A DNA stretch of 64,000 nt, taken from the IMG/VR virus record IMGVR_UViG_3300037325_000203. The stretch is one strand, 5' to 3'. Origin of the DNA: a virus. The notes beneath the pieces were generated by a model, which saw only the letters and a list, made by a program, of their open reading frames with translations, was not told the origin of the DNA and made no database searches. Both the position numbers and the translations under genes were made by a program. Each line of letters starts with the position of its first letter. The stretch's first letter is position 1. Below are positions 1,108-60,586 of this stretch, one piece after another.

Positions 1108-1470
1108 TCATGCGAATGCTCTCTTTACAGAAGCAGGAACAAACTCGGCACCTAGTTCGGCTGCTGCCTGTGTCATTGATGGTAGCATGAATACAGCGCC
1201 GGGCATGGACATAAATGCTGCAAACCTAGCTGCAACAAATGAATCCTTTGCTTTCTTATTTGCAGATGCAATTTCATTCATTGTGGCGTCACCACGTGAT
1301 GCGCGAGTATAGATGGAAATAACTTCTTTTACATTATCTGCTTCTTCAGTGAATGCAGACTGAGCTTTCTCCATGGCCGACTTCATTTCCTCTGGAGTCT
1401 TTGGATATCCCGCAAAATAGTCAGTTGTTAGTTTAAAGAGGTCCTGGGGTGTTTTAATTGTTTTTGTCAT
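1108..1470 (-). CDS. Hypothetical helical, Ala-rich protein
   Basis: ORF; likely start MTKTIK at 1470 with a GGAGA Shine-Dalgarno. Confidence 0.55.
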   Translation of the reverse strand: MTKTIKTPQDLFKLTTDYFAGYPKTPEEMKSAMEKAQSAFTEEADNVKEVISIYTRASRGDATMNEIASANKKAKDSFVAARFAAFMSMPGAVFMLPSMTQAAAELGAEFVPASVKRAFA

Positions 1471-1616
1471 TTGATTTCTCCATTGTGTGCTATTATAGCC
1501 ATGATGATAAACTAGCTCACTATGAGCACAGTTTGTACTATTATATATACTTATCTGCTGCACTGCAACATTCCGGTATTATGTGGTAAATGAGATAATA
1601 ATTACTCAACAAAAAG

Positions 1617-2162
1617 TTATTTAGATTTAACTATACCACGTTGTGTATTCTTATAAACTAGCTCCATAACACTTCCACTGAGCCCTGGCGGTAGTCCTTG
1701 GAAGAATTTATTCTTATTGCCTTCATTTGCATACTTACGCAACTTGGATGCACTAATTCCTGCGATACCCCTTGACCCTGAAACACGTTCACCTGCAGAA
1801 ACAACTTCGAAATGTATACCCCATTGGTCAGTATATTTTTTAAACGCACTGTAGCAGGTGACCTGGTCTGACCCAGCTATCATGATAATATTATCGTAGG
1901 TGTCCTTTAAAATTTCTATCGCAATAAATGGATTCTTTACGGAAACATCATTTGATATGTTGACACCCGTAAATGCATTTACGCATACTCGCCTCTTAAA
2001 GTCCCATTCCAGAGGATCATTTGGCGCTCTATTTGTTTGCGAAAGATATACGATATGATCCGCACCTATTTTTTTCGCTGTTTGTACTACTTTAGAAACA
2101 AGTAATTTATGCCCCCTGGTAGGTGGATTCATTCTGCCAAATGTAAATACAACCGAGCTCAT
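1617..2162 (-). CDS. Cytidylyltransferase-like (HxGH) nucleotidyltransferase
   Basis: TFGRMNPPTRGH and ISASKLR motifs. Confidence 0.85.
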   Translation of the reverse strand: MSSVVFTFGRMNPPTRGHKLLVSKVVQTAKKIGADHIVYLSQTNRAPNDPLEWDFKRRVCVNAFTGVNISNDVSVKNPFIAIEILKDTYDNIIMIAGSDQVTCYSAFKKYTDQWGIHFEVVSAGERVSGSRGIAGISASKLRKYANEGNKNKFFQGLPPGLSGSVMELVYKNTQRGIVKSK

Positions 2163-2247
2163 AAAGCAGTATAGTACAATACTACATGTATGTCTTCCTT
2201 TGAGTAGGTTCTGGTTTTACCCAGGTTTACCGCATCGAGACTCGATG

Positions 2248-2586
2248 CTAGTAATTCGCATCGTCATCCAGATATGAATATTTTGCATTGTCTTCTCGAT
2301 TCCAGTATCTCGTATCGTCTTCCCGACGTCTGTATCTCGAATCATCTTTATTGTCTAGAAATTTGTTTATACCCTGATATCCTGTACCATAAGCTAAATA
2401 TCCAAGAAAATATTCGATACTCATTGATCCTGCAATGGCTAATTGAAACATAAAAACAGTTGCACCAAATGCAACTAGAATAGCAATAATTCTGGCGTGG
2501 GAGTATTTGCCTGTGGCATTATCCTGACATGCTTCTTTTATGATGCAACAAAAAGACCGTATTATACTGGCTATCGTTTTAAACAT
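2248..2586 (-). CDS. Small membrane protein, holin-like
   Basis: Two hydrophobic segments, charged C-terminal tail, late motif upstream. Confidence 0.45.
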   Translation of the reverse strand: MFKTIASIIRSFCCIIKEACQDNATGKYSHARIIAILVAFGATVFMFQLAIAGSMSIEYFLGYLAYGTGYQGINKFLDNKDDSRYRRREDDTRYWNREDNAKYSYLDDDANY

Positions 2587-2664
2587 TTTATATCTCCGAA
2601 TATAATATTTATCTGGAACTCGTAAGAAAGACCTGCGTTGAGCAATACTTTTATCGATAAACTA

Positions 2665-4164
2665 TTAAGAGATTCTTACAAAGCTGCCGTTGGCAAACCA
2701 AACTTCACCTACTGTATACTGGGCCAGAGTAGCAGGCAGAGAGCTAGCACCAATAATCGTGCCGCCGGTGTTACTACGCAATGTTATTAGTCCAACACCC
2801 AAGTTAATGATAACAAACGCATCGCCGTTTGTTGCACTGGCTGGCATATCGATATTAATATCGGTACCAGACGACACAGGAATATGTTTGCGATTTGCGT
2901 GAGCTACCACAGTCAATACTGCTGACTCCGTTATCACCGCAGGCGGTTCTGTGCTGGCAATCGGATTAACCCATGTGCCGTCGCCGCGCCAGAATGTTAA
3001 TGCAGTTGCGCCTGCTGCACCATTTAGACGAGTGACAGGAAGATTACTTGTAATACTCGAAGAAGAGCCGGTGGTATCTTGATTAAAAGTAGGGAAGTTT
3101 GTAAGTAATTCTGCGCTTCCATTTGGTACCAAATAGTCGGTCCCTGCTACGAAGTTTGCAACACGATAATCATTTGCATATTGGTTATTCGTCGAGTTAT
3201 CACCGGTATTAGTACCAGATAAGTTTGATCCAGTAACTGCCCCGGTTGCTGCAACCGAGGTAGGTGTAATTGCACCAAGTGTCAATGTAATTGCAGGAGT
3301 ACTTGTGTTGGTTGTTACGGAACCAGTAACACCATTGGCGCCTGTCACAGAAACAGACGTAACTGTGCCTCCCTCGGCACCGGAAACATCGGCCCAGCTA
3401 GCAGTAGTTCCATCGGATGTCAAAAACTTGCTGGCAGCGGATGCCTGTGCAGGTAACAGCCCAGTTAGTGTCTGATCACCGGTATTAGTACCAGATAAGT
3501 TTGATCCAGTAACTGCCCCGGTTGCTGCAACCGAGGTAGGTGTAATTGCACCAAGTGTCAATGTAATTGCAGGAGTACTTGTGTTGGTTGTTACGGAACC
3601 AGTAACACCATTGGCGCCTGTCACAGAAACAGACGTAACTGTGCCGCTAGGACCGGTAGGAGGGGCGGTCCAGGCACCATCGGCACGCAAGAAGTTTGAT
3701 GAACCGCCGCCGGACATTGGAGTCAATCCATCTGCTATGGCAGTAAATACTGTTAACGCAGGTGGTATGACGGTTGTCCCGGCAATTACTAATCCTTTTT
3801 CGTTTACAGTTACACTATTGAATGTACCAACATTTGAATTCACTGTTGCGAGAGTAAGAGCAGTCGCTCCCGTAACATCGCCCGTATGAGTTGCATTAGA
3901 AACTTTTAATGTGTTAGCTGCTACTGCAAGATTGGTAGCAATGAGCCCATTTGCATTGGCTACTACAGCAACGTTGGAATTAACAACAATAGAAACAGCA
4001 GCAGCAAAATTACTAATCGTAGAGGATGTTTGTTGACCGGTATGATTTACCCTGTTTAGTAGAAAAGAGTCAAGTGATATCCCGATACCGTCCCTGATTT
4101 GTTTGAGCTGAGCCGGTGTTGCGGTTACCGCAACACCGCCGGCCGTTTGTAAATTAATTGCCAT
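2665..4164 (-). CDS. Tail-fibre/spike-like Gly/Thr/Ser-rich structural protein
   Basis: FLRADGAW, FWRGDGTW, GTVTSVSVT and LSGTNTGD fibre-type motifs. Confidence 0.75.
   Translation of the reverse strand: MAINLQTAGGVAVTATPAQLKQIRDGIGISLDSFLLNRVNHTGQQTSSTISNFAAAVSIVVNSNVAVVANANGLIATNLAVAANTLKVSNATHTGDVTGATALTLATVNSNVGTFNSVTVNEKGLVIAGTTVIPPALTVFTAIADGLTPMSGGGSSNFLRADGAWTAPPTGPSGTVTSVSVTGANGVTGSVTTNTSTPAITLTLGAITPTSVAATGAVTGSNLSGTNTGDQTLTGLLPAQASAASKFLTSDGTTASWADVSGAEGGTVTSVSVTGANGVTGSVTTNTSTPAITLTLGAITPTSVAATGAVTGSNLSGTNTGDNSTNNQYANDYRVANFVAGTDYLVPNGSAELLTNFPTFNQDTTGSSSSITSNLPVTRLNGAAGATALTFWRGDGTWVNPIASTEPPAVITESAVLTVVAHANRKHIPVSSGTDINIDMPASATNGDAFVIINLGVGLITLRSNTGGTIIGASSLPATLAQYTVGEVWFANGSFVRIS
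3199..3645. repeat. Exact 171-bp in-frame direct repeat (3199-3369 and 3475-3645)
   Basis: Identical copies 276 bp apart, duplicating a 57-aa fibre module. Confidence 0.95.
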
Positions 4165-4284
4165 GATAGTCTTCCTTAAAAATTATTGTTCTTTCATTTA
4201 TCATAATATAATAAAGCTGGAATCGAATAAAGCAATACTATTACCTAACAGTAAGTTGCTTGCTAGCATTTCAGTAATTAGCCG

Positions 4285-4560
4285 TTATGCTAACTGGGAA
4301 AATATTACGATACTCTCTCCACCTATAAAGGAAGTATTAAATGTCAATCGAGTATTACTAGTTACAGTGTATGCCCTTGCTGACCTTCTATTTGTAGGGA
4401 CCATTCACAAAAACTTGAATAAATTCCTTGCCTGGCGTTTTTCCCTGTAATCTGATATCGACTACATTTACAATATTTCCGACTGTTGCGATAACCTCTT
4501 CATAATAACCAATTATGAGTGTTTGCCAACCGGCAGCAGTATCCGATGTAGCGTTTAACA
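4285..4560 (-). pseudogene. Frameshifted relic of a fibre/baseplate beta domain
   Basis: IQVFVNG / LQIEG / SARAYTVTSNTRLTFNTSFIGGESIVIFSQLA* read across two 1-nt shifts; resembles VFVNGLMQVEGLLYTVTGSNQITF in 57431-58855. Confidence 0.7.
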
Positions 4561-4711
4561 CGCCAACCAAATGCTCCTGGTTTCGCTTCGGGGTAGCTAC
4601 CTCCTCATCGGTCAAAACGGGCTTTGCCTTCATCACGTTGACCAAGTTCACACTGTCCATGGCTGCGGTGTAGTGCTTTGAAATTTGTTCGGAAGTGTTT
4701 TCGATATTCAT
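4388..4711 (-). CDS. Fibre-associated small protein fused to the relic domain
   Basis: N-terminal half QISKHYTAAMDSVNL...RNQEHL lies in the GC-richer cassette; start overlaps the upstream stop (ATGA). Confidence 0.55.
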   Translation of the reverse strand: MNIENTSEQISKHYTAAMDSVNLVNVMKAKPVLTDEEVATPKRNQEHLVGVLNATSDTAAGWQTLIIGYYEEVIATVGNIVNVVDIRLQGKTPGKEFIQVFVNGPYK

Positions 4712-5727
4712 GGTTTGCTTTCAAGCGCCGTTAGGCGGGTTGTAAGTGCTTCAATCAGGGCTTGTTGTTCTTGAATGGCTTTTACCAATACAGGGATCAA
4801 TGCAGTATCAATCATCCGCAGTTTGTCTGCGTCTTCGTTATCCACGATCACTGGGCTATCACCCTCAAGCGCCAGTACATCCTGTGCTCTAAACCCGTAA
4901 CGCACGCCACCATTGGTTTCATCAGAGTCCCGTGCAGTGCGGAACTGGTACGCAATAGGTTGCAACCCTTTTACGAACTCTAGGCCGTGGGGCACAGACG
5001 TGAAGTTTGTCTTGTCCCTAGCATCTGACACTACCGTCCATGCCACTTGTATGTAGGCGTTGGTAACGCCCGTCGAACCCATGCAAAAACGGTCGTTCTC
5101 TGTAGTTGGGTTAAAGACTGGAGCGTAAGTGCCTGCTGAATTTAATGGGTTAATCGCTGTGTTTCCACTGCCTGTGGTGTTGTAGCGGAGTGCGCTCCAC
5201 CCGCTGGCTGTGTTGGAGTTGCCCGTGGTGTTGAAGCTGAGTGCGCTCCGCCCACTGGCTGTGTTACTGCCGCCAGTGGTGTTGCTATTGAGTGCGAACT
5301 CCCCGCTGGCTGTGTTCCCGCTGCCCGTGGTGTTGCTCAGGAGTGCGTCCCGCCCACTGGCTGTGTTGTCGCTGCCAATGGTGTTGTTAGCTAACGCATC
5401 TAAACCCAATGCGGTATTGGTATCAATTGATCCAGCTCCTATTCCAATTGTTAGCTGATTAATAGTTGCATCATTGGCCAATGCTAATGTGGCGCCATCA
5501 AATGTCATGTTTGCAGAACCTGCAAACACACCATTATCGTTAAATTGTACTTGCGTGTCTAACCCGGCGGGTTTGCTACCGGCTTCGTCGCCTTGCTCAG
5601 GTGCAGTTCCGGAATTAGCAAATGCTCCCCTAACAGAATCGTATACAAGATACTGTCCATGTATTACATTCTTTATATAGAAAGATGGTACATATTGGTT
5701 AACTAGAGTGTTTACGCCTACGATCAT
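4708..5727 (-). CDS. Tail fibre with 14-aa beta-helix repeats and C-terminal peptidase S74 intramolecular chaperone
   Basis: Repeated NTTGxxNTASG; SDARDK cleavage motif; YGFRAQD; LIPVLVKAIQE coiled coil. Confidence 0.88.
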   Translation of the reverse strand: MIVGVNTLVNQYVPSFYIKNVIHGQYLVYDSVRGAFANSGTAPEQGDEAGSKPAGLDTQVQFNDNGVFAGSANMTFDGATLALANDATINQLTIGIGAGSIDTNTALGLDALANNTIGSDNTASGRDALLSNTTGSGNTASGEFALNSNTTGGSNTASGRSALSFNTTGNSNTASGWSALRYNTTGSGNTAINPLNSAGTYAPVFNPTTENDRFCMGSTGVTNAYIQVAWTVVSDARDKTNFTSVPHGLEFVKGLQPIAYQFRTARDSDETNGGVRYGFRAQDVLALEGDSPVIVDNEDADKLRMIDTALIPVLVKAIQEQQALIEALTTRLTALESKP

Positions 5728-6174: not shown

Positions 6175-6241
6175 ATTGTTCCTATGCTTCTGTGTTATTT
6201 ATCAGAAACGAGCATAGGATACCACTATAACGCGACCCAAT

Positions 6242-10868: not shown

Positions 10869-10956
10869 AAATGTCCTCTTTTAATTATTTATCAAACTAT
10901 TGTGCCTTTTACAAAGTTTAGCATTTGGAAACACAATACATACTTTATTTAGATAA

Positions 10957-31489: not shown

Positions 31490-31520
31490 TAGTTTCCTGT
31501 ATTTCTACAAAATATTTATC

Positions 31521-40311: not shown

Positions 40312-40353
40312 TAATTGGATAAATAATAGAAATCGGAAAAGGATTACCAAAAC

Positions 40354-48349: not shown

Positions 48350-48541
48350 TTAAGTTATTCCCCTAGAGACAAAAGAATTTAGTTTATCTGCTTCTGCTAT
48401 CACTTCTTCGGTAGTTGGCGACGTTTGTTGATTATTACCGTTGGCAACATCAGCAGCAAGATGTTTTGCTGAAAGTACATCAAGTGATAGTTGCAAGAGT
48501 CTAAGTCTAATTTCGTATGGGGTCATGTTAATTGTTTTCAT
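48350..48541 (-). CDS. Small hypothetical phage protein
   Basis: MTPYEIRL...PTTEEVIAEADKLNSFVS. Confidence 0.65.
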   Translation of the reverse strand: MKTINMTPYEIRLRLLQLSLDVLSAKHLAADVANGNNQQTSPTTEEVIAEADKLNSFVSRGIT

Positions 48542-48548
48542 TAATGTG

Positions 48549-48860
48549 TTATTTTATAATCGAGCCTTTTTGGGGTAATGCTATGCCAGTGGTCACACTT
48601 TCATATTGCCCTTCGAGCTCTGCAACTGGATCAGTTTTAACTAATACCGATGCTTTGTTAAGAGGTAATGCCTTTTTTGGATCTGCCATCATTAAAAATG
48701 GGGCAAATTGCATACCTTTCTGGGTAGCAACCATACATAATGGCTGCTCGATAAGCCAAGCCATAGGCATTTCTCCTACGACCTTACAAATCATTTCTTC
48801 TCCTGTGCTTACTTTGAATACTGAAATATAAGGAAAGTCTTTCTGTGGTTGTGTTAGCAT
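48549..48860 (-). CDS. Sm/SH3-like small phage protein
   Basis: FKVSTGEEMICK...QP...FAPF...YESVTTGI. Confidence 0.6.
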   Translation of the reverse strand: MLTQPQKDFPYISVFKVSTGEEMICKVVGEMPMAWLIEQPLCMVATQKGMQFAPFLMMADPKKALPLNKASVLVKTDPVAELEGQYESVTTGIALPQKGSIIK

Positions 48861-48871
48861 TTATTTTCTCT

Positions 48872-50650
48872 TTATGTTGTTTTAGATTTATTCCAAATAT
48901 AGGCGTTTGTACCGCAGTCCCAAACCCTATCAAACCCATTGGCTTGCATGTTCTGCCATTCGGTAAGCAACGGGTCATATGTAGATGATACGTCGACAAG
49001 CTTATGTTTTTGATATTTTACACGATTCTCGAATTTTATGTAATCTTTCGTATACAAATAGGACGGCGGGCTAACATGAGAAAAATTAAATCCTATTAAT
49101 TCATACATGTTGCCGGTATTTCTCATCTTATCCGAGTAAGATATAACACTCAAAGGATTGCAGCGTTTAACAAAATTCTTAAATAGTCTAGATGCGCCGC
49201 CGACTACATTTGTAAATTGCAACGAACAGTACCTTAACAACTCGTAATCCACATTCTTGTTAAATCTAGATTTACCAAATGTCATTATTGCCGTCAGTAC
49301 ATTGTCATTGTATAGCCCTAAATTTATGGCAGACGGGCAGTTCCCCTGGATATGATTATTATTTAAAAATTCTGCTGTATTAAACTTCGACACCACAGAT
49401 AGCTCGCACTTTCGAGCATAAATTCGCAAATTTAAGCCTAGTCTCGAAGATATTCGAGACTTGATCAGCTCTTGTTTTTTTTTCCACTCATGCTCCCATA
49501 TGTGAATTAGCTCTATGCCGGCATCGGTGCATGCTTTAGTTTTTGTTAAGTGATAATTTTTGTCTTTTCCATTTAGTTCGCTATGCCAATATGACCCGTT
49601 ACACTCGACAGCAATTTTTAAGTCCGGGAGATAGATATCCAACTCCCCCGGACTAATAACTGTTTTCGTATTTAATACAATGTCGCAATCTGTAATGCCA
49701 GTAATGTAATGTTTTACACTTTGTTCAAATAACGAATTGCTGTGTTTTTTGTAAATTAATCCGTGTTTAGTAAAATATTGAGATACTGTCCTGACTGTTA
49801 CACTAAGTTCGTCTGCGATAGATGATATGCTTTTTGTGGAATTTTCGTTAGTTAACCACGTTGCAGATTGTAATTTATCAAGTGTACCGGGCTGCAATGA
49901 TATTTGCCCTGGATTCATCACCGTGTGCGTATTATATAATGTTGCCTGCATTTTACTTAACACAGCAGGCGACGATGCAGGCGATGGTCCGTCGTATCTG
50001 GATATATTTGTATTCCTTATTTGCTCTCTAATTGACGAGTCGTGCATAACGTTATCGACACCGTACTTATTTAAAATTGTCTGTTTTGATTTATTTGTGA
50101 TTTCGGTATTATGAAATACGCAACTGTTGCCGTACCGTTCATAATTTGTAGCACGAATCTTTTCTAATAACTCGGGAGAGTGCACAGCATGTTCTACGCC
50201 GTACCTGTCGAGCATTGTTTTTTTTACTTTAGCTGCTACTGCCGTTGATTTTCTGGGATTATCGACTCCATACTTAATAAGGCAGGTCTCGCGGGTAGCA
50301 GATCTGACAGATGTATCCATACGGGCGCATTTAACCGAGCAAAATCGGTTATAGCAGGACGTTTGGGATTTCCATTTAGTATTTTTACCACATGCACATG
50401 TCGGTATAGCCGATATCCCTTGCTTTATGTGCTGAAATGCTACACCTAATTTGTCTATCCCTAGTTCCCTGGCATATTCTAGGACTTCTTTGTATAACCG
50501 GACATTTGATCTAAGTAATGGCACGTTTAAAGCACCATTACTTTTCACATGTGATGGTATCAATGAATTATATAATTCAGAAATTGTCCCATCCATCGAC
50601 CGCCTCGCTCCTAGAATATTCTGTAACTTTAGTTTCGAAAAAGTTTTCAC
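48872..50650 (-). mobile_element. Free-standing Hef-like homing endonuclease gene downstream of nrdB (alternative start 50596)
   Basis: KYGVDN-type repeats, ELDIYLP..KIAVECNGSYWH, IHIWE, GGASRL, VWDCG. Confidence 0.8.
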
Positions 50651-51593
50651 GTTTTTCGGAATTTAAATATTCATACGGGTTTTTGGAAAACCCCTTATAT
50701 ACCACACCCAGGCCTAATATTTTAGTTCTTTGATTTACAAGGTATTTAATATACCCTTCTGTACTTTCCTGCGAAATCCCAAGAATTCTGTCTCCATAAA
50801 TTTCCTTACCCCATTCTATTTCTTGCTCAGCAGCCGCCATAAGATTATCAAGTATGATTTTTCTATCATCTTCATTATTCATGTCGAATACTTCTCGAAT
50901 AATGTTTGCAAAAAAGTTTACATGGGTTACCTCATCATTCTCGATATATTTGATCATCTTTGCAACATTAGCAACTTTGTTTCTAGAGGCTAGCTGATAG
51001 AAGAACTGAAACCCATTATAGAAATAAATCCCTTCTAATGCATAATCTGCTGCAATGGCATTCTTATAGTTAGCTAACGACTTGTCGTTACTAAATTTCT
51101 GAAACTGGCCGGCAATAAACTTGTTACGCTTCAGCAGCATAGGATTATTGCGCCAGTAGTTGTAAATTTCTTCGCGCTCTGTGTTAGGAAATAATTCCTG
51201 TAATAGATACTGATACGACTGAGAGTGAATCAGTTCCTGGAATGCCTGTATAGTAAACAACGCACTTACTTCCGGAGCAGTAATATAGTCCGAAATATTA
51301 GGAAGGTTTGCTACTTGCATACTATCTAGTGCAATCAGAAATGAAAGTGTATTCTTAAATGCTTCCATTTCGTCTTTTGTAAGTTCCTTAATAGTAACTT
51401 TGTCGTCTACTAGAGAAACTTTTTCCGGTATCCAAAAATTGTTCACCATGATCTTATATAACTTGGTTGCCCATACATACTTAACACTATTCAGGTTAAG
51501 TATGCCAGTGGCCGAGCCATTGATCATTTGTCTAGCTGTCGGTGAGTCATCACCGAACTCGTTGAAAATAGTTTTATGTGTTAGTTCGTTCAT
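50577..51593 (-). CDS. nrdB: Ribonucleotide reductase class Ia beta subunit
   Basis: FWIPE, DSMQ, QELIHSQSY, LEGIYFYNGF, DEVTH, NFFE. Confidence 0.96.
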   Translation of the reverse strand: MNELTHKTIFNEFGDDSPTARQMINGSATGILNLNSVKYVWATKLYKIMVNNFWIPEKVSLVDDKVTIKELTKDEMEAFKNTLSFLIALDSMQVANLPNISDYITAPEVSALFTIQAFQELIHSQSYQYLLQELFPNTEREEIYNYWRNNPMLLKRNKFIAGQFQKFSNDKSLANYKNAIAADYALEGIYFYNGFQFFYQLASRNKVANVAKMIKYIENDEVTHVNFFANIIREVFDMNNEDDRKIILDNLMAAAEQEIEWGKEIYGDRILGISQESTEGYIKYLVNQRTKILGLGVVYKGFSKNPYEYLNSEKRENFFETKVTEYSRSEAVDGWDNF

Positions 51594-52236
51594 GCTTTTT
51601 CTTCCCGTATATAAACCCGTCCGGCATTTCGCGTCCGGGCTTTAATTTTGTTATTATCTGACCATTTGTAATCCATTTCCCGCGATCAGGAAATGGGGCC
51701 ATTCCCTCGACCCATCCGATCGGAATTGTATCTTCTAGCCTAAAATACTTGCTTTCTTTACCATTTGTAAACCATTTTGCACCGCCCATACTAGGAGTCA
51801 AACCGCCTCGTAGAATATGATTTCTTTCTGGAAATCTACGCATTGGGTTATTATCCCCACTCATCGCTACAGAAATCTTCTTCTTTGCAGCATCCTTGTG
51901 CATTGGATTTCCTACATCTTTCATCCGAATTGAACAATTTCTAGACATTGCAATCTTAGCACGCTCGTATTGCCTGGAAGATATTCTTCTGTCATTTTTC
52001 TTATTTTCGGTAGCCATCCAGAAAAATGCATTTGATATCTTCCAGTTATTTGGATAAAGTTTATACAATAACCAATGTGCCAAATAATGTTCTTTTGCAG
52101 TTAAAGAAGTTAAATTATTTTCTGTATCAACGCCATTCATGCATCTTGGAATAATGTGATGCTTTTCAAAATAATCTAATTTTCTGCCTTTCTTACCCCT
52201 CAAACAAATTGTATCATATATCTTTTTATAGTCCAT
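51574..52236 (-). mobile_element. HNH homing endonuclease (MobE-like position, between nrdA and nrdB)
   Basis: EKHHIIPRC, NL..LTAKEHYLAHWLL, NPM and KWxTNG DNA-binding repeats. Confidence 0.9.
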
Positions 52237-52280
52237 ATTACCCCGCGCATTATAAACTATTTATCTATGTGCGGGATAAT
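52237..52280 (-). promoter_or_regulatory. RBS-sequestering hairpin with a late-promoter motif in its loop
   Basis: AUUAUCCCGCACAU / AUGCGCGGGGUAAU, 13 of 14 paired; GATAAATA at 52258-52265; ATG follows directly. Confidence 0.8.
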
Positions 52281-52783
52281 CAGCCACTACACGCGACACA
52301 ATTTTCTTCCTCTGTTTTAATCACAGAATCAATTGTAGCATTGGCTTTAATTGTTCTAATATAGTAAATTGACTTGATTCCTTTACGATGTGCGTAATGT
52401 ATTGCATCGTATAATTGCTTTGCTGTAAAACTCTCATTACGTTGATCGAATATTAACTCCATAGAGCACCCTGTATCAATAAATTTCTGCAATTCGGAAA
52501 CGACATCGATAATTTCTGTTGCCGTATGCTTTGGAAATGTTTTACCGTATGCAATAGGATTATCTTTAAGAAATTTTGCAACAACTACAAGTTTACCATT
52601 CTTGTTATCTTCTGAAAAGAAGGAATCATAAACAGGTAAGATACTTGCACTAGAGTCCATATAGATCGAAGTACTTGTATTATGACTTACTATGCCATTT
52701 CCCATAAAATACGCATGAGAAGATGGAACTTCAAAATCTGCTGTCGGAATAGTCATTCCTTTTTCTATTTTTTTAATTTTCAT
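52280..52783 (-). CDS. nrdA: Split-intein C fragment (35 aa) fused to the NrdA C-terminal part
   Basis: MKIKKI...ADFEV...GIVSHN followed by TSTS...; extein has QKFIDTG.S, SIYYIR and C-terminal CVAC. Confidence 0.95.
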   Translation of the reverse strand: MKIKKIEKGMTIPTADFEVPSSHAYFMGNGIVSHNTSTSIYMDSSASILPVYDSFFSEDNKNGKLVVVAKFLKDNPIAYGKTFPKHTATEIIDVVSELQKFIDTGCSMELIFDQRNESFTAKQLYDAIHYAHRKGIKSIYYIRTIKANATIDSVIKTEEENCVACSG

Positions 52784-54023
52784 TTATAAAATTCCCCAGT
52801 TTATTAAATATGTATTGTTCTTGCATGGGTAAACTAAGCACTTCCCACACATGAATTATGTCGAATCCGTTCTTTACTGCTATGTCACGTTTTAGCTCAT
52901 CGTTATTATATTGTTCATCGGCCGATTTACCAAAGGGTGTTCTCCATGTTGTCCATTCTGCGTCAGATAATCCGAGCTTGTACGGGTGCCAAACTTTTCC
53001 GTTATATTCTACAATTAATTTCATAGACGGTATGCAAAAATCATACAACTTCGGTAATTTAGATTTATCATTGTATAACATTAATTCCTCGCTATCACCT
53101 ACACCCCATTTTATATCATTTCTATTAATGCCATGCCTTCTTAGGTATTTGTATATAGGTAATAAAAATTTAAATGCTGCTTTGGACGATTTATGCCGTT
53201 TTGTTCTATTAAATCCTGCTCTTGCAAATATTATTTCTCTTGCTCTCTCAATTCCGTGTGTTTTAGCCAACGATTCAAATTTACCACTCTCAGATCGTTT
53301 TAAATTAATATTATTATATTCGTCTAACGTATTATTGAATACATGACCGGCGCGTGATGAGGAAAATGAATTTCTATCATTCTTACTGTTGTATAACTTC
53401 GTGCCTTGTTCTTTACCGAATTTTTCTACATAGTATTCCAGTGTATTACTATAAGATACCCTATCACAAAACTGTTTATATTTTACCGGGCCATCACTTA
53501 CACCGTACCTTCTTGTGAATGACGGCAGATTGCCCGCAGTTTCAGTCTTAATCTTTGCTATCTTTTCTACAGCAGTCTCTACTGAATACCCCAAATTAAT
53601 CCATGTACTTATGTCATACGAATTAGGTGGTTTATTTTTGCACTTTGCCTGCGCAATCGGCGCATCCTCGTCAAAGTAATCATTGAAGAATAATGATGTA
53701 TTACATTCGTGGTTGCCTTGTCGTTTAAAGAATAAAGCATTAACCCATGCACGAGATATGCGCAATGTATTCATGCCATATTTAATATATATTTTAAAAA
53801 TAGTTGCAAGGTTGTATGATGTGTATTCATTGTGATATAAACCCATGAATAAATCTCGGGCTTGAGATTCTATGTAAGTAGACAGTATTATACCACGTGC
53901 ATTTAAATATCCACTCAGAGATTCTAATTTTTCAAAAGAAAAATTAGAATCTCTCCTGACACATTTTAAAAAATTAGACCCCGAAATTTTATATATCTTA
54001 TTATCGTATTTTACAACTGACAT
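52773..54023 (-). mobile_element. Free-standing Vsr/DUF559-like endonuclease between the two nrdA halves
   Basis: YDF...LIVEYNG..WH...D..K..IA..NGF.IIHVWE; KxG repeats. Confidence 0.82.
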
Positions 54024-54042
54024 GCCCGGCTTCCAATACTTG

Positions 54043-56214
54043 TCAGTTATTTATCATATTTATGTCGACTATTTCCATCTCTTCCGTCATATTTTCCACT
54101 TTAATCCATTGGTTGCCGTCATTTGTTTTAACCAATAGCATATGATTGGGTGTGAATGAATATGTAATCCCGTCCTCGAATGTAATATCTGTGGTCTCTT
54201 GTATTCCGTTCCACCAAATTCTTTCAACAAATTCAGTGTCGCCTTTCGGTGTGTTAACTTCGACAGGTAATTTTAATTCTATCCAATGCTGTGGCAACTC
54301 TATCAACTCGTGTATCTTCAAACCATCATTCTCTAATATCTGTCTAATGGTTGTTAGTCCAGCAATAGTCATTACCTTGTCGTCTAACGAATGGCAATTT
54401 GGAGCAGGGCTTGTTAATTGACTATTACGCATACCATGTACATCTATCTCGGACTGTAATGCTTTCCAGTCATACTTACCGGAAGCATGTTCTGCAAACT
54501 GGCTAATTCGATTTCCGTTTTTCCACTCAGAAGATTCGAACGCACCAAACGACCCGAATCTCTTAGATAACTCTATACTGGATAACACTGCATGATATTC
54601 CACGCACTCTGCAATTTGCCTAATATAGTCTAGGTCTCTGAAATTCATGTACTCCCTGGCAAGGTGGTCGTGCAAACCTTGCAAGCCAATGCCAATTGTT
54701 CTATATCTGTTGTTATGAGCGTGAGTTACAAGATCAGGTGCGCTAGTCAGGCTGATGCCATAATCCAATATACGTGTTGTTAATTCAGAAACTTTACCTA
54801 ATTCTTTAAAATCTTTAATGTTGCCTAATACAATAGAAGCTAGATTACAAACATGGCCTAACTCGTCCGGTTTAACATTAGAAAAGGACTCTGTGCATAA
54901 ATTTACACAAGGAATACCGATGTGACCGTTAGTATCTCCCTTATTCGGATTATACTCGTTGATGGTGTCAGTGAATGCAATGTATGGTAGACCAGTTTCG
55001 AACTGTATACGCATTATAATTTTCATCAGATCACGGGCATTATCGAATTTTCGAGTTACGATTAGTTTACCTTCCTTGGCAGCTGATTCAATTTTAAGGT
55101 ATGCTTCTGTAAATGCAGAACCATACATTCCGCGAACATCAATACCTAATTTTTTCTTAACCTCATACGGGCAAAAGGTATGCCATTCTCCCCTGTTAAG
55201 ATCTCTTTCCATGAAAATGTCTGGAATTGTAACCTGGGGAAACACGTCGTATGCCTTCATTCTCGGGTCACCGTGTTCTGTTTGCATATCCAAGAAGTCA
55301 AGCACATCATTATGCCAGATAGGAAGTGCTATAGTTCCTGCACCAGCCCGCTTACCACCCTGATTAACTGCAACTAACGTATCATTGAGAATTTTGACCC
55401 ACTGAACAACTGTTCCTGCTGCATTCTGATAACCATTTACATCTGCGCCCTTGGCTCGGAGATATCCTAGGAATAAACCTATGCCGCCCCCGTTCTTAGA
55501 AATTAATGCAACACGCTTGATATTATCAAAAATACTGTCTATATCGTCTTCTATAGCAATAATAAAACAAGATGCAACGTTTCCTCCCTTTCTAAGATTA
55601 GATAGGAAAGGTGTTGCTAAAGAAATCTTACGCAGAGAAAGCGCATTATATACTTCCTTTACGAATTTTAACCTAGTCTCTACTGGTTCTAATTGACCGA
55701 ATCGCATTGCATTGACCATATGCATATGTTGATTTAGTTCATGCTTACCTAAATATTTTTTCTTTGCAGTAATGAGACTTGCATAACTATGATCCAAGTC
55801 TCGATTCATTTTAATCGACGAACTTAGCTCCTCTATATCTACGTCTGTATAGAACTCTAAAAGTTCCGATGAGTAATGTCTATTCTTAACATTATAATGA
55901 ACCACTTCTTTAAAGGACTTTCCGCGAAGTGTAAAGTTTGCCCATTCATCCATCGCTAGTGCGCGGCCAGCGACATTCACCCAGTCCGGTGCCGAAGGCG
56001 AAGCAAGCTGTATTGCGTGCTGAATTACATTCAGTTGAATATCACGCGTCTTTATACCTGGCTTTAGAAACTGATCAAACTTGGATTCAAGTTCTAAAGG
56101 ATTAACATCCTGTCCTTCTGCTGCCATTTGTATAGATTTCTTAATCTTAGAAACATCATAAGGCTCTTTCGTACCGTCACGTTTCTCTACCATTATTTCT
56201 CTAACTGTTGCCAT
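54043..56214 (-). CDS. nrdA: NrdA N-terminal part (ATP cone and catalytic core) fused to the split-intein N fragment (117 aa from 54396)
   Basis: VEKRDG cone, SCF, NLCTE, VCNLASI, SPAPN followed by CHSLDD; intein block B FTPNH. Confidence 0.95.
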   Translation of the reverse strand: MATVREIMVEKRDGTKEPYDVSKIKKSIQMAAEGQDVNPLELESKFDQFLKPGIKTRDIQLNVIQHAIQLASPSAPDWVNVAGRALAMDEWANFTLRGKSFKEVVHYNVKNRHYSSELLEFYTDVDIEELSSSIKMNRDLDHSYASLITAKKKYLGKHELNQHMHMVNAMRFGQLEPVETRLKFVKEVYNALSLRKISLATPFLSNLRKGGNVASCFIIAIEDDIDSIFDNIKRVALISKNGGGIGLFLGYLRAKGADVNGYQNAAGTVVQWVKILNDTLVAVNQGGKRAGAGTIALPIWHNDVLDFLDMQTEHGDPRMKAYDVFPQVTIPDIFMERDLNRGEWHTFCPYEVKKKLGIDVRGMYGSAFTEAYLKIESAAKEGKLIVTRKFDNARDLMKIIMRIQFETGLPYIAFTDTINEYNPNKGDTNGHIGIPCVNLCTESFSNVKPDELGHVCNLASIVLGNIKDFKELGKVSELTTRILDYGISLTSAPDLVTHAHNNRYRTIGIGLQGLHDHLAREYMNFRDLDYIRQIAECVEYHAVLSSIELSKRFGSFGAFESSEWKNGNRISQFAEHASGKYDWKALQSEIDVHGMRNSQLTSPAPNCHSLDDKVMTIAGLTTIRQILENDGLKIHELIELPQHWIELKLPVEVNTPKGDTEFVERIWWNGIQETTDITFEDGITYSFTPNHMLLVKTNDGNQWIKVENMTEEMEIVDINMINN

Positions 56215-56227
56215 GTACCTGTTCTCT

Positions 56228-56665
56228 CTATGTTATTACTTTTATTTCATTCCTCGAAAATCTTCTTAGAATCTCGACACTACCTTGTATCTCCGGGTAC
56301 ATATTTACCTTGCCTAATTCGTAATTCAAAATATATCGATTACCAATGATGGGCAAAAGAAATATCCCATCTACGTCTTGTACCAAAATCAAGTCAATAT
56401 CGACATATTCCGTTGACATAGCTATGGTATAGAACATGAGTATGCTTATGGAACTTGTGCAGAATAATCCGTGATGCAGGATCTCCCAAGGAGTGGGCCA
56501 GTCTTTTGGACTATAGTAATCGACGGATCTAGAACCGAATGGTATATGGGCGCAAAATTTGGCAACTTCTTCTAGCTGTTCTTGTTGCTCCATAGCCTGT
56601 ATAGATATTCTAAGCTTTTTCCAAAGATTAAGACGCTCGGCGTCGGGTATAGATGCCCAAATCAT
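56228..56665 (-). CDS. Hypothetical protein
   Basis: WPTPWEIL...FC segment. Confidence 0.6.
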   Translation of the reverse strand: MIWASIPDAERLNLWKKLRISIQAMEQQEQLEEVAKFCAHIPFGSRSVDYYSPKDWPTPWEILHHGLFCTSSISILMFYTIAMSTEYVDIDLILVQDVDGIFLLPIIGNRYILNYELGKVNMYPEIQGSVEILRRFSRNEIKVIT

Positions 56666-56725
56666 TCTGTTTTAATTTTGTTAGAGTAGGTAGGAAAGTA
56701 TGTCATGTATTTGTATGTGATGTAT

Positions 56726-57391
56726 TTAGTCGAAACCGAACCTGTCATAATATGAGTATAGTCTGTTTGCCCACATTGTTTCGAACCTCCTGAACTCGCT
56801 GCCTTCGATTACAAACTCTTGATACTTTGCATCGCGAGTAGCAATCATTACAACACCCTTAGCTATATTGGTTCCATACATTTCATTATGCGACATGGCA
56901 TATGCTGTTAACTGCATGAAATAATCATCAATCCATTCTTTTTTCTTATCTCTGAGGCTGTTCTTAAAGTCAATTACGGCAGGAATGTTATTATGAAGAC
57001 CTGTTACATCGGTGGTACCTGCATAGAGTCCAGTGGAGTATAGCGCAACTTCTGACCCCCATATTTCATTCACATTACGCATACCATTTTTGATAATCAC
57101 ATTTGCCAGCGCCTTGGACATAAGTGTCCCTGTCATGGGCACACCCGTAATGTAATTTTCCAGATTTTTATGCATCCCGTTTCCTAGGTTGCTTGCAGTG
57201 GTTTTTATTTTTTCTGCTTCCACTTCGCCCACTCGTTCTACCCACGCTTTTAGGTGAGTTAAATCTTTCATCTTACTAAGTATGGTTGTGACGCTGGGAA
57301 GTGCCCGATCTTCACCTACTATATAGCGTCTTCCGTTTGGACTATTAATTCTGTTTAATGGTTTGTAATCGTATTTTTGTTGTATGAGCAT
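56726..57391 (-). CDS. PD-(D/E)XK exonuclease
   Basis: LPSVTTIL, G..MH, YAGTTD, IDFK, QL.AY; TTGACT-17-TATACT at 57398-57426. Confidence 0.9.
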   Translation of the reverse strand: MLIQQKYDYKPLNRINSPNGRRYIVGEDRALPSVTTILSKMKDLTHLKAWVERVGEVEAEKIKTTASNLGNGMHKNLENYITGVPMTGTLMSKALANVIIKNGMRNVNEIWGSEVALYSTGLYAGTTDVTGLHNNIPAVIDFKNSLRDKKKEWIDDYFMQLTAYAMSHNEMYGTNIAKGVVMIATRDAKYQEFVIEGSEFRRFETMWANRLYSYYDRFGFD

Positions 57392-60538: not shown

Positions 60539-60586
60539 ATACCCTTTCCTGTTAAGTTTTATTTCTACTATTTATCTTTACAGAGC

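Follow-up and report, generated by a model that had tools for sequence, protein, structure and literature searches.

The 64,000-nt stretch of viral DNA analysed here (the window; IMG/VR virus record IMGVR_UViG_3300037325_000203) carries on its minus strand what we read as a fractured nrdA, the gene for the large subunit of a class Ia ribonucleotide reductase (RNR), together with the two halves of a putative naturally split intein that would rejoin its pieces. Reading the open reading frames (ORFs) of positions 52280-56214 revealed three consecutive minus-strand ORFs, each in a different frame: one joining the N-terminal part of NrdA to an N-terminal intein half, IntN (54043-56214, 723 aa), one for a predicted endonuclease (52773-54023, 416 aa), and one joining a C-terminal intein half, IntC, to the rest of NrdA (52280-52783, 167 aa). 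The parts of the locus and the adjacent nrdB are as follows.

54397..56214, minus strand: nrdA N-extein, residues 1-606, ending ...TSPAPN; Pfam PF03477, PF00317 and PF02867
54046..54396, minus strand: IntN, 117 aa; Cys1, block A CHSLDD, block B TPNH and an acidic tail
52773..54023, minus strand: predicted free-standing homing endonuclease gene, 416 aa; helical N-terminal region and C-terminal Vsr-like (EDxHD-type) domain at about 280-414
52679..52783, minus strand: IntC, 35 aa, ending SHN; basic first strand MKIKKIEKG, block F DFEV..H.Y and block G GIVSHN
52280..52678, minus strand: nrdA C-extein, 132 aa plus stop, starting with Thr+1; PF02867 positions 391-523
50577..51593, minus strand: nrdB, RNR small subunit, the predicted partner of the spliced NrdA; Pfam PF00268, E = 1.9e-66; nrdB follows nrdA in all relatives

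A script run on the sequence placed the Cys1 codon of IntN (TGC) at 54396-54394 and gave ACA as the Thr+1 codon; the stop codon of the first ORF, TGA, occupies 54043-54045. Joining the two extein translations by script produced a protein of 738 aa with the junction SPAPN/TSTS (here and below, a slash marks an intein boundary or the point of insertion). Pfam recognised an ATP-cone, an all-alpha domain and the RNR barrel in the N-extein, and the barrel (PF02867) is divided between the pieces, the N piece matching profile positions 1-389 and the C piece 391-523. The catalytic motifs VASCF, NLCTE and HVCNL, read from the translation as equivalents of Cys225, of Asn437, Cys439 and Glu441, and of Cys462, lie in the N part, and the YY radical-transfer pair and C-terminal CxxC (SIYYIR and CVAC, the C part also being aligned to solved NrdE chains) lie in the C part. 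An original prediction, made from the letters and ORFs of the window, had proposed this anatomy, and its coordinates and lengths all hold, from the SPAPN end, the 117-aa IntN with Cys1 at 54396 and TPNH, and the 416-aa ORF to IntC at 52679-52783, Thr+1 and the 738-aa product; its allocation of the catalytic cysteines to the N part and of the YY relay and CxxC to the C part was likewise confirmed from the translations. As the three ORFs occupy three frames and relatives are laid out in the same way, a sequencing frameshift fails to account for the split.

The extein junction and the intein halves

Pseudomonas phage vB_PsaM_M1 has an intact NrdA to which the N-extein is 51% identical. The joined NrdA aligned gaplessly with that protein (361 of 718 aligned residues identical) and with the intact NrdA of Acinetobacter phage TaPaz, both of which read TSPAPN-TSTS at the junction. 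A scan of IMG/VR identified 56 related loci, most with 62-88% amino acid identity and several on contigs of 130-385 kb, the closest relatives of the N-extein being 80-88% identical. The N- and C-extein matches abut directly, with no insert, in all 56, and none of the 56 carries the intein or the 416-aa endonuclease. The 20-residue junction NSQLTSPAPN/TSTSIYMDSS was identical in 9 of 9 intein-less relatives compared there, and in the flanking DNA of these nine, 22-29 of 30 nt per side were identical. Because the junction is uninterrupted in every related IMG/VR locus, the intein cassette is a sporadic mobile insertion in one of the most conserved stretches of nrdA. Alignment with solved class I enzymes mapped the break to a loop reading P-T-G/S-[TI]-S, which we take to contribute to substrate phosphate binding.

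All class-1 splicing residues are present in the window's intein halves. A tblastn search of GenBank phages with IntN recovered named relatives of 27-38% identity: the NrdA of Campylobacter phages CP220, CPt10, CP21 and the NCTC12673/PC14 group, the NrdA of Klebsiella jumbo phages phiKp_21 and KP13-7, and an annotated helicase intein of Staphylococcus phages Twort and Quidividi. We combined the named-phage relatives and the window intein halves in a profile of eight family sequences (A1), which matched about 35 solved inteins. The best was 9hth (E = 4.3e-6), and the matches included Pho RadA (6e-5), Spl DnaX (7e-5), Mxe GyrA (1e-4), Npu DnaE (about 6e-4), VidaL (8e-4) and gp41-1 (0.025).

Conservation of the splicing residues was assessed in 10 IntN and 17 IntC sequences. 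Cys1 and the block B Asn-His were invariant among the IntN sequences, with the block B Thr nearly so (TPNH in the window), and the block F Asp, the Tyr, the Gly and the terminal His-Asn were invariant across the IntC sequences (DFEV..SHAYF..GIVSHN in the window); the +1 residue was Thr or Ser in all relatives. Cys1 is present, so nothing in these halves points to a class 2 or class 3 layout. The break falls between blocks B and F, aligning with a loop of the contiguous PC14 and CP220 mini-inteins, and the loop between these blocks is the usual seat of intein endonuclease domains. IntN has a net charge of -13 and the first 12 residues of IntC one of +3, an acidic-basic polarity likewise reported for NrdA-2, NrdJ-1 and IMPDH-1 (PMC2677866). 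The motifs, profile matches and conserved residues support the assignment of the window element as a naturally split class-1 intein.

The same allele occurs elsewhere. A collection of 5.8 billion proteins yielded four other N-fragments (P0002-P0005) whose IntN is 52-65% identical to that of the window, as well as at least 11 C-fragments of 161-171 aa that begin MK[IV]... and contain a 35-aa IntC ending SHN/TS. Metagenome fragments including P0003 and P0012 share the layout of the window, and a dozen such fragments have the same intein allele. One C-fragment, P0036, has a TaPaz-like extein, so the intein element has passed from one RNR lineage to another. Every related C-fragment opens with MK[IV].. 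(in CP21 with MV..), and its IntC closes with ..[ST]HN, followed by Thr or Ser; these starts favour the IntC ATG at 52783 over Met10 of the database gene call (P0006). A search for long proteins with a close IntC, which would be a contiguous form of the window intein, found none; such a negative is weak evidence.

Three near-identical IMG/VR loci (L066-L068) have the same layout around an RNR only about 35% identical to that of the window: between an IntN and an IntC that ends SHN/TAQ lies a 412-aa endonuclease with 31-32% identity to that of the window. The endonuclease is full length in L066 (922-2160) and L068 (5766-7004), and in L067 it is a 90-aa C-terminal remnant (2432-2704) between intein halves that are both kept. 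From this comparison, the L067 endonuclease would have decayed once the split was fixed. The L068 N-fragment is a 1451-aa ORF (1352-5707) in which the extein matches are broken twice, by about 1 kb each, at window NrdA residues of about 280-285 and 430-440; these breaks are probably two further contiguous inteins before the split one.

Several variants of these architectures were noted. The N-fragments P0002, P0004 and P0005, of about 500 aa, have a 60-70-aa IntC-like N-terminus that ends (I/L)VHN directly before GGKR(A/S)GAGT. NrdA is thus divided into three pieces or more in these phages, and HN is followed by Gly, which cannot be a canonical +1 nucleophile. Those of P0004 and P0005 end SPAPTTS before Cys1, and the C-fragments P0013, P0015, P0023 and P0025 read SHN/TSIYQD. 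If N- and C-fragments of these types pair, the intein apparently lies two codons further along the TSTS repeat than the N/TSTS position of the window. At L069 (1425-4334), a related split intein (IntC MKIKKIEKIG...THN/SGL) breaks a different gene, with a 579-aa HNH endonuclease ORF between the halves. Other insertions within nrdA were seen in L052 (7327-8148), L061 (7327-8283) and L063 (6850-7357), where the SPAPN-TSTS site is intein-less. The L052 insertion, close to the thiyl Cys at about residues 434-444, holds an HNH-like ORF that is 43% identical to the N-terminal part of the 220-aa HNH enzyme encoded beside the window's nrdA (see below).

The intervening endonuclease and nucleotide features

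The 416-aa protein gave weak to moderate matches to homing-endonuclease families in PHROGs, and a HMMER scan with a limit of E <= 1e-3 returned 1617 homologues. Across 54 aligned homologues S280, E313, D328, E339, H346 and K378 were invariant and D375 nearly so, and just 5 of the 54 touched DUF559. The N-terminal consensus of these 54 contains repeated helical I-x-x-Y-G-x-x-x-G-x-x-x-Y modules, in which Pfam found no NUMOD match; this helical part is probably a DNA-binding region. An AlphaFold2 model computed on the homologue alignment had a mean predicted local distance difference test score (pLDDT) of 82, and above 90 over about 130-416. The C-terminal domain of the model was structurally closest to I-Bth0305I (3r3p; Z 9.1, root-mean-square deviation 2.9 A, 95 of 97 residues) and next to E. 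coli Vsr (1vsr, Z 8.9; 1cw0, Z 8.6), ahead of other PD-(D/E)xK-like nucleases. Foldseek alone reached E 0.03 to Vsr, the Z-scores requiring a second structural comparison. The motifs YDF..IVEYNG..WH..D..K resemble those of Vsr, in a comparison made by sequence and not residue by residue on the 3r3p site. On the modelled fold, the protein would belong to the Vsr-like/EDxHD homing endonuclease family. Enzymes of this type occupy half of the fractured loci of Dassa et al. (PMC2677866), where the intervening gene is of GIY-YIG or Vsr-like type, and Taylor et al. showed an EDxHD enzyme to be a homing endonuclease (PMC3239194). The public gene call (P0039) starts at Met60 and is 357 aa long. Because the homologue P0040 aligns from residue 4 of the 416-aa form and the L066 and L068 enzymes have 412 aa, we favour the 416-aa form. 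A megablast search of the locus against GenBank phages returned no match.

The boundary between the first ORF and the endonuclease gene has two further features.

54013..54050, minus strand: predicted RNA hairpin; fold of -14.9 kcal/mol, z -4.0, 1 of 200 shuffles as stable; also present in a 111-nt context
54048..54064, minus strand: T4-late-promoter-like motifs, CATAAATA at 54057-54064 and GATAAATA at 54048-54055, 24-33 nt upstream of the endonuclease AUG

The nrdA-N stop codon falls in the 5' arm of this hairpin, a GGAAG resembling a ribosome-binding site (RBS) in its inner part, and the endonuclease AUG (54023) at the start of its 3' arm. The GATAAATA copy adjoins the 5' arm and is one mismatch from TATAAATA. 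The window has 22 copies of the combined motif (C/G)ATAAATA (SATAAATA) where 11 are expected, a number reached in 0 of 100 shuffles, and 12 of the 22 lie 17-45 nt upstream of a same-strand ORF start, including both homing endonuclease genes of this locus. Copies are found window-wide, for example at 6196-6203, 10886-10893, 31513-31520, 40318-40325 and 60569-60576, and the motif is probably a late-promoter variant of this phage. The canonical TATAAATA was dropped as a late promoter, being depleted in the window (1 against 7.3 expected), and scans for sigma-70 promoters and terminators gave no difference from shuffles. A group I intron was also set aside as an explanation of the locus: an Rfam scan of 48500-57000 at E <= 1 gave just two sub-threshold chance matches, neither of them a group I intron. 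The endonuclease and IntC ORFs overlap by 11 nt (52773-52783), and a GGGG lies 10-13 nt upstream of the IntC ATG. A hairpin, a late-promoter-like element and an ORF overlap are the three nucleotide features of fractured genes (Dassa et al. 2009, PMC2677866); the window locus has all three, in addition to the free-standing endonuclease between the intein halves.

Counting the 416-aa gene, the RNR operon has three distinct homing endonuclease genes in a span of 7.3 kb. One encodes a 220-aa HNH/NUMOD3 enzyme (51574-52236, minus strand) and lies between nrdA-C and nrdB, the mobE position of T-even phages, and occurs in only 3 of the 56 related loci (L014, L037 and L038; 69-73% identity). Upstream of this gene (52237-52280) are a GATAAATA copy at 52258-52265 and a GC-rich inverted repeat around a GGGG RBS. 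Directly downstream of nrdB, positions 48872-50650 (minus strand) encode a 592-aa Hef-like homing endonuclease (phrog_3339, E 4e-134) with DUF7487 repeats and a Vsr/restriction endonuclease-like core, which has the catalytic core motif alone in common with the 416-aa enzyme (BLASTP E 3e-5).

Proposed mechanism and alternative readings

We propose that in this large phage a fractured class Ia nrdA is mended by a trans-splicing split intein, and place the probability of this reading at roughly 0.88. A class-1 mini-intein would have settled in the conserved P-x-x/[ST][ST] loop of NrdA, and a free-standing Vsr-like (EDxHD) endonuclease gene would then have entered the canonical site between blocks B and F, halving the intein. 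Two polypeptides, NrdA(1-606)-IntN and IntC-NrdA(607-738), would be made separately and brought together by the acidic IntN and the basic start of IntC, whereupon Cys1, Thr+1 and the terminal Asn would perform trans-splicing. The product would be a 738-aa NrdA with the native SPAPN-TSTS loop, working with the adjacent NrdB. The endonuclease probably cuts the intein-less nrdA of co-infecting relatives, spreading the whole cassette. Its own translation is probably held back on read-through nrdA mRNA by the hairpin over its RBS and AUG; transcripts initiated immediately 3' of GATAAATA would be missing the hairpin's 5' arm and could be translated, or the hairpin might be opened by a mechanism coupled to termination.

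The fractured nrdA, split intein and intervening endonuclease of the original prediction are all supported by the exact junction, the A1 matches, the retention of splicing residues in more than 15 relatives and the Vsr-like/EDxHD fold. That prediction had allowed that near-identity to a characterised intein would remove the novelty of the pair. The pair is near-identical to no characterised intein: IntN as a single sequence matched no solved intein in the PDB, and the best named relatives are 27-38% identical in IntN. The suggestion that the pair may be a new member with a Thr+1 nucleophile stands as far as this distance goes. Thr+1 itself is already known: Neq Pol is naturally split and has Ser1/Thr+1, and about 12% of inteins combine Cys1 with Thr+1 (2025 review, PMC11766414).

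Several results count against the proposal. The search of the PDB that matched no solved intein was made with IntN as a single sequence; the Pfam intein-splicing family (PF14890 Intein_splicing) reached only E 1.7e-4 and 21.9 bits on IntN, below its gathering cut-off of 35.8, and IntC alone had no Pfam match. The endonuclease sequence matched nothing in Pfam, and nothing in the PDB either as a single sequence or as a family profile, and residues 1-130 of its model are of low confidence. Thr+1 is a weaker nucleophile than Cys or Ser, and splicing could be slow. A promoter role for GATAAATA is suggested by enrichment and position, in a window in which TATAAATA is depleted. We infer splicing, the activity and target of the endonuclease, and the regulatory logic from sequence and model; a second, intact RNR may also be encoded elsewhere in the genome, beyond the window.

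The alternatives make different use of the same observations. The NrdA pieces might assemble non-covalently, the intein halves being mere interaction tails with no ligation, as in phage Aeh1, where tails of NrdA-a and NrdA-b derived from a mobile element are needed for activity without splicing (PMC3045599, PMC2677866). The poor nucleophilicity of Thr would suit such an arrangement, as would P0002, P0004 and P0005, whose IntC-like segment is followed by Gly and lacks canonical splicing ability. Retention of all class-1 splicing residues, invariant or conservatively replaced in more than 15 diverged relatives, would be unexpected for binding alone, however, and the break lies within a loop whose native backbone only ligation would restore; we therefore regard non-covalent assembly as improbable. 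We think it very improbable that endonuclease invasion has inactivated nrdA and left non-functional pieces. The intein-ridden nrdA of Campylobacter phages was judged to be degenerating by Dwivedi et al. 2013 (PMC3653736), the C-extein ORF of CP21 is truncated, and three homing endonuclease genes crowd the window's RNR locus. Yet both extein ORFs are full length, without stops or frameshifts, retain all catalytic motifs and are 80-88% identical to their closest intact relatives; nrdB is intact, and many diverged phages from metagenomes keep the fractured allele with its intein residues conserved.

An assembly or sequencing artefact, concealing a gene with one contiguous intein and an embedded endonuclease domain, can barely be credited. 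Related inteins with an internal endonuclease domain do exist, such as the 420-aa helicase intein of Twort and Quidividi, but the three frames would require two compensating frameshifts, each ORF has its own start and RBS-like sequence, independent assemblies share the N-fragment ends and the MKI.. starts of the C-fragments, and published EDxHD enzymes are either free-standing or encoded within introns (PMC2677866, PMC3239194).

Under the trans-splicing reading, the window pair is an uncharacterised example of a known arrangement, in which Thr+1 is not new for a natural split intein, and current understanding of inteins is unchanged by it. Its interest is in part practical. The split inteins of phage fractured genes (gp41-1, NrdJ-1, IMPDH-1 and NrdA-2) are the fastest protein-ligation tools known, and orthogonal pairs are sought. 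Being distant in sequence from all characterised inteins, with Cys1/Thr+1 and a native TS(T/I) C-extein, the window pair is a candidate orthogonal split intein, and with at least 12 natural variants it forms a reasonable screening set. That this family, with its MKIKKIEK IntC, Cys1/Thr+1 and P-x-x/[ST][ST] site, is indeed a fast and orthogonal natural split intein we consider doubtful. The locus is also a clean case of a sporadic intein-plus-endonuclease cassette. It supports a proposed route, drawn from comparing CP220 with CP21 and L066 with L067, in which a mini-intein is invaded by an endonuclease gene, becomes a split intein and later loses the endonuclease by decay.

Comparison with known systems

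Fractured genes were first described in 2009 by Dassa et al., as gp41-1, NrdJ-1, IMPDH-1 and NrdA-1 to NrdA-7 (PMC2677866). The window locus shares with them a phage nucleotide-metabolism gene, a split intein, a free-standing Vsr-like endonuclease between the halves, a hairpin where translation of that endonuclease begins, a motif resembling a late promoter, and the acidic IntN and basic IntC; the overlap of the endonuclease and IntC ORFs is 6-69 bp in their genes and 11 bp here. NrdA-2 was shown to splice by Pinto et al. 2020, with a native junction of SNL/CNE and Cys+1 (PMC7090010). The NrdA-1 to NrdA-7 inteins lie directly N-terminal to the thiyl-radical Cys, whereas that of the window lies about 160 residues further on, at SPAPN/TSTS with Thr+1, and leaves NLCTE uninterrupted. 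Its insertion site and Thr+1 rule out that the window intein is an allele of NrdA-1 to NrdA-7, NrdA-2 included, a distinction made by site and not by sequence comparison.

The predicted endonuclease shares with I-Bth0305I (PMC3239194, PDB 3r3p) its C-terminal fold, a helical, putatively DNA-binding N-terminal region and, as far as the motifs suggest, the invariant Asp, Glu and His positions; it has no significant sequence match to 3r3p. The nrdA of phage Aeh1 is likewise cut into two genes by mobE, which encodes a homing endonuclease (Friedrich et al. 2007; Crona et al. 2011, PMC3045599), and the translation of mobE is under an RBS-sequestering hairpin and a late promoter, features matched at the window locus. 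Aeh1 has no intein and its pieces associate non-covalently, whereas the tails in the window are complete intein halves with all splicing residues.

The closest counterparts by site are in the Klebsiella phages phiKp_21 and KP13-7 (Alcyoneusvirus), which share the NrdA site (IMPGE/TSSQ), the split point, Cys1/Thr+1 and a 35-aa IntC (MKIVKIEK...SHN/TSS), with a split IntN 34.5% identical to that of the window. They differ in having a 323-aa HNH-type protein, not a Vsr-like one, between the halves, and their host RNR is E. coli-like. Their pieces are annotated just as nrdA and hypothetical proteins, and our literature search found no paper describing this jumbo-phage NrdA split intein and no catalogue of RNR intein sites.

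The Campylobacter phage NrdA inteins, described in the literature as putative only (PMC3653736, PMC3322345), occupy the same insertion site and belong to the same family (27-38% IntN identity), PC14 also having Thr+1. Those of CP220 (PPAGN/C...SHN/SSK) and PC14 (IAPTA/C...SHN/TSG) are contiguous mini-inteins of 146 and 153 aa, whereas that of the window is split. CP220 (L005, 3501-3938) is contiguous, and CP21 (L007, 3501-3824 and 4927-5031) has nearly the same intein split by a 272-aa ORF. That ORF has the same Y-G repeat modules, with an HNH-like stretch after it in another frame, and the CP21 C-extein ORF looks truncated. By sequence, CP220 and CP21 would show directly what such an intein looked like before and after it was split. 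They take their place in a natural series that runs from intein-less genes (56 loci) through contiguous inteins (CP220, PC14) to inteins split by Vsr-like, HNH or other ORFs (the window, the Klebsiella phages, CP21), and ends with an endonuclease remnant (L067) and a site apparently shifted by two codons (P0004, P0005), so that the birth, spread and decay of a split intein can be traced stepwise.

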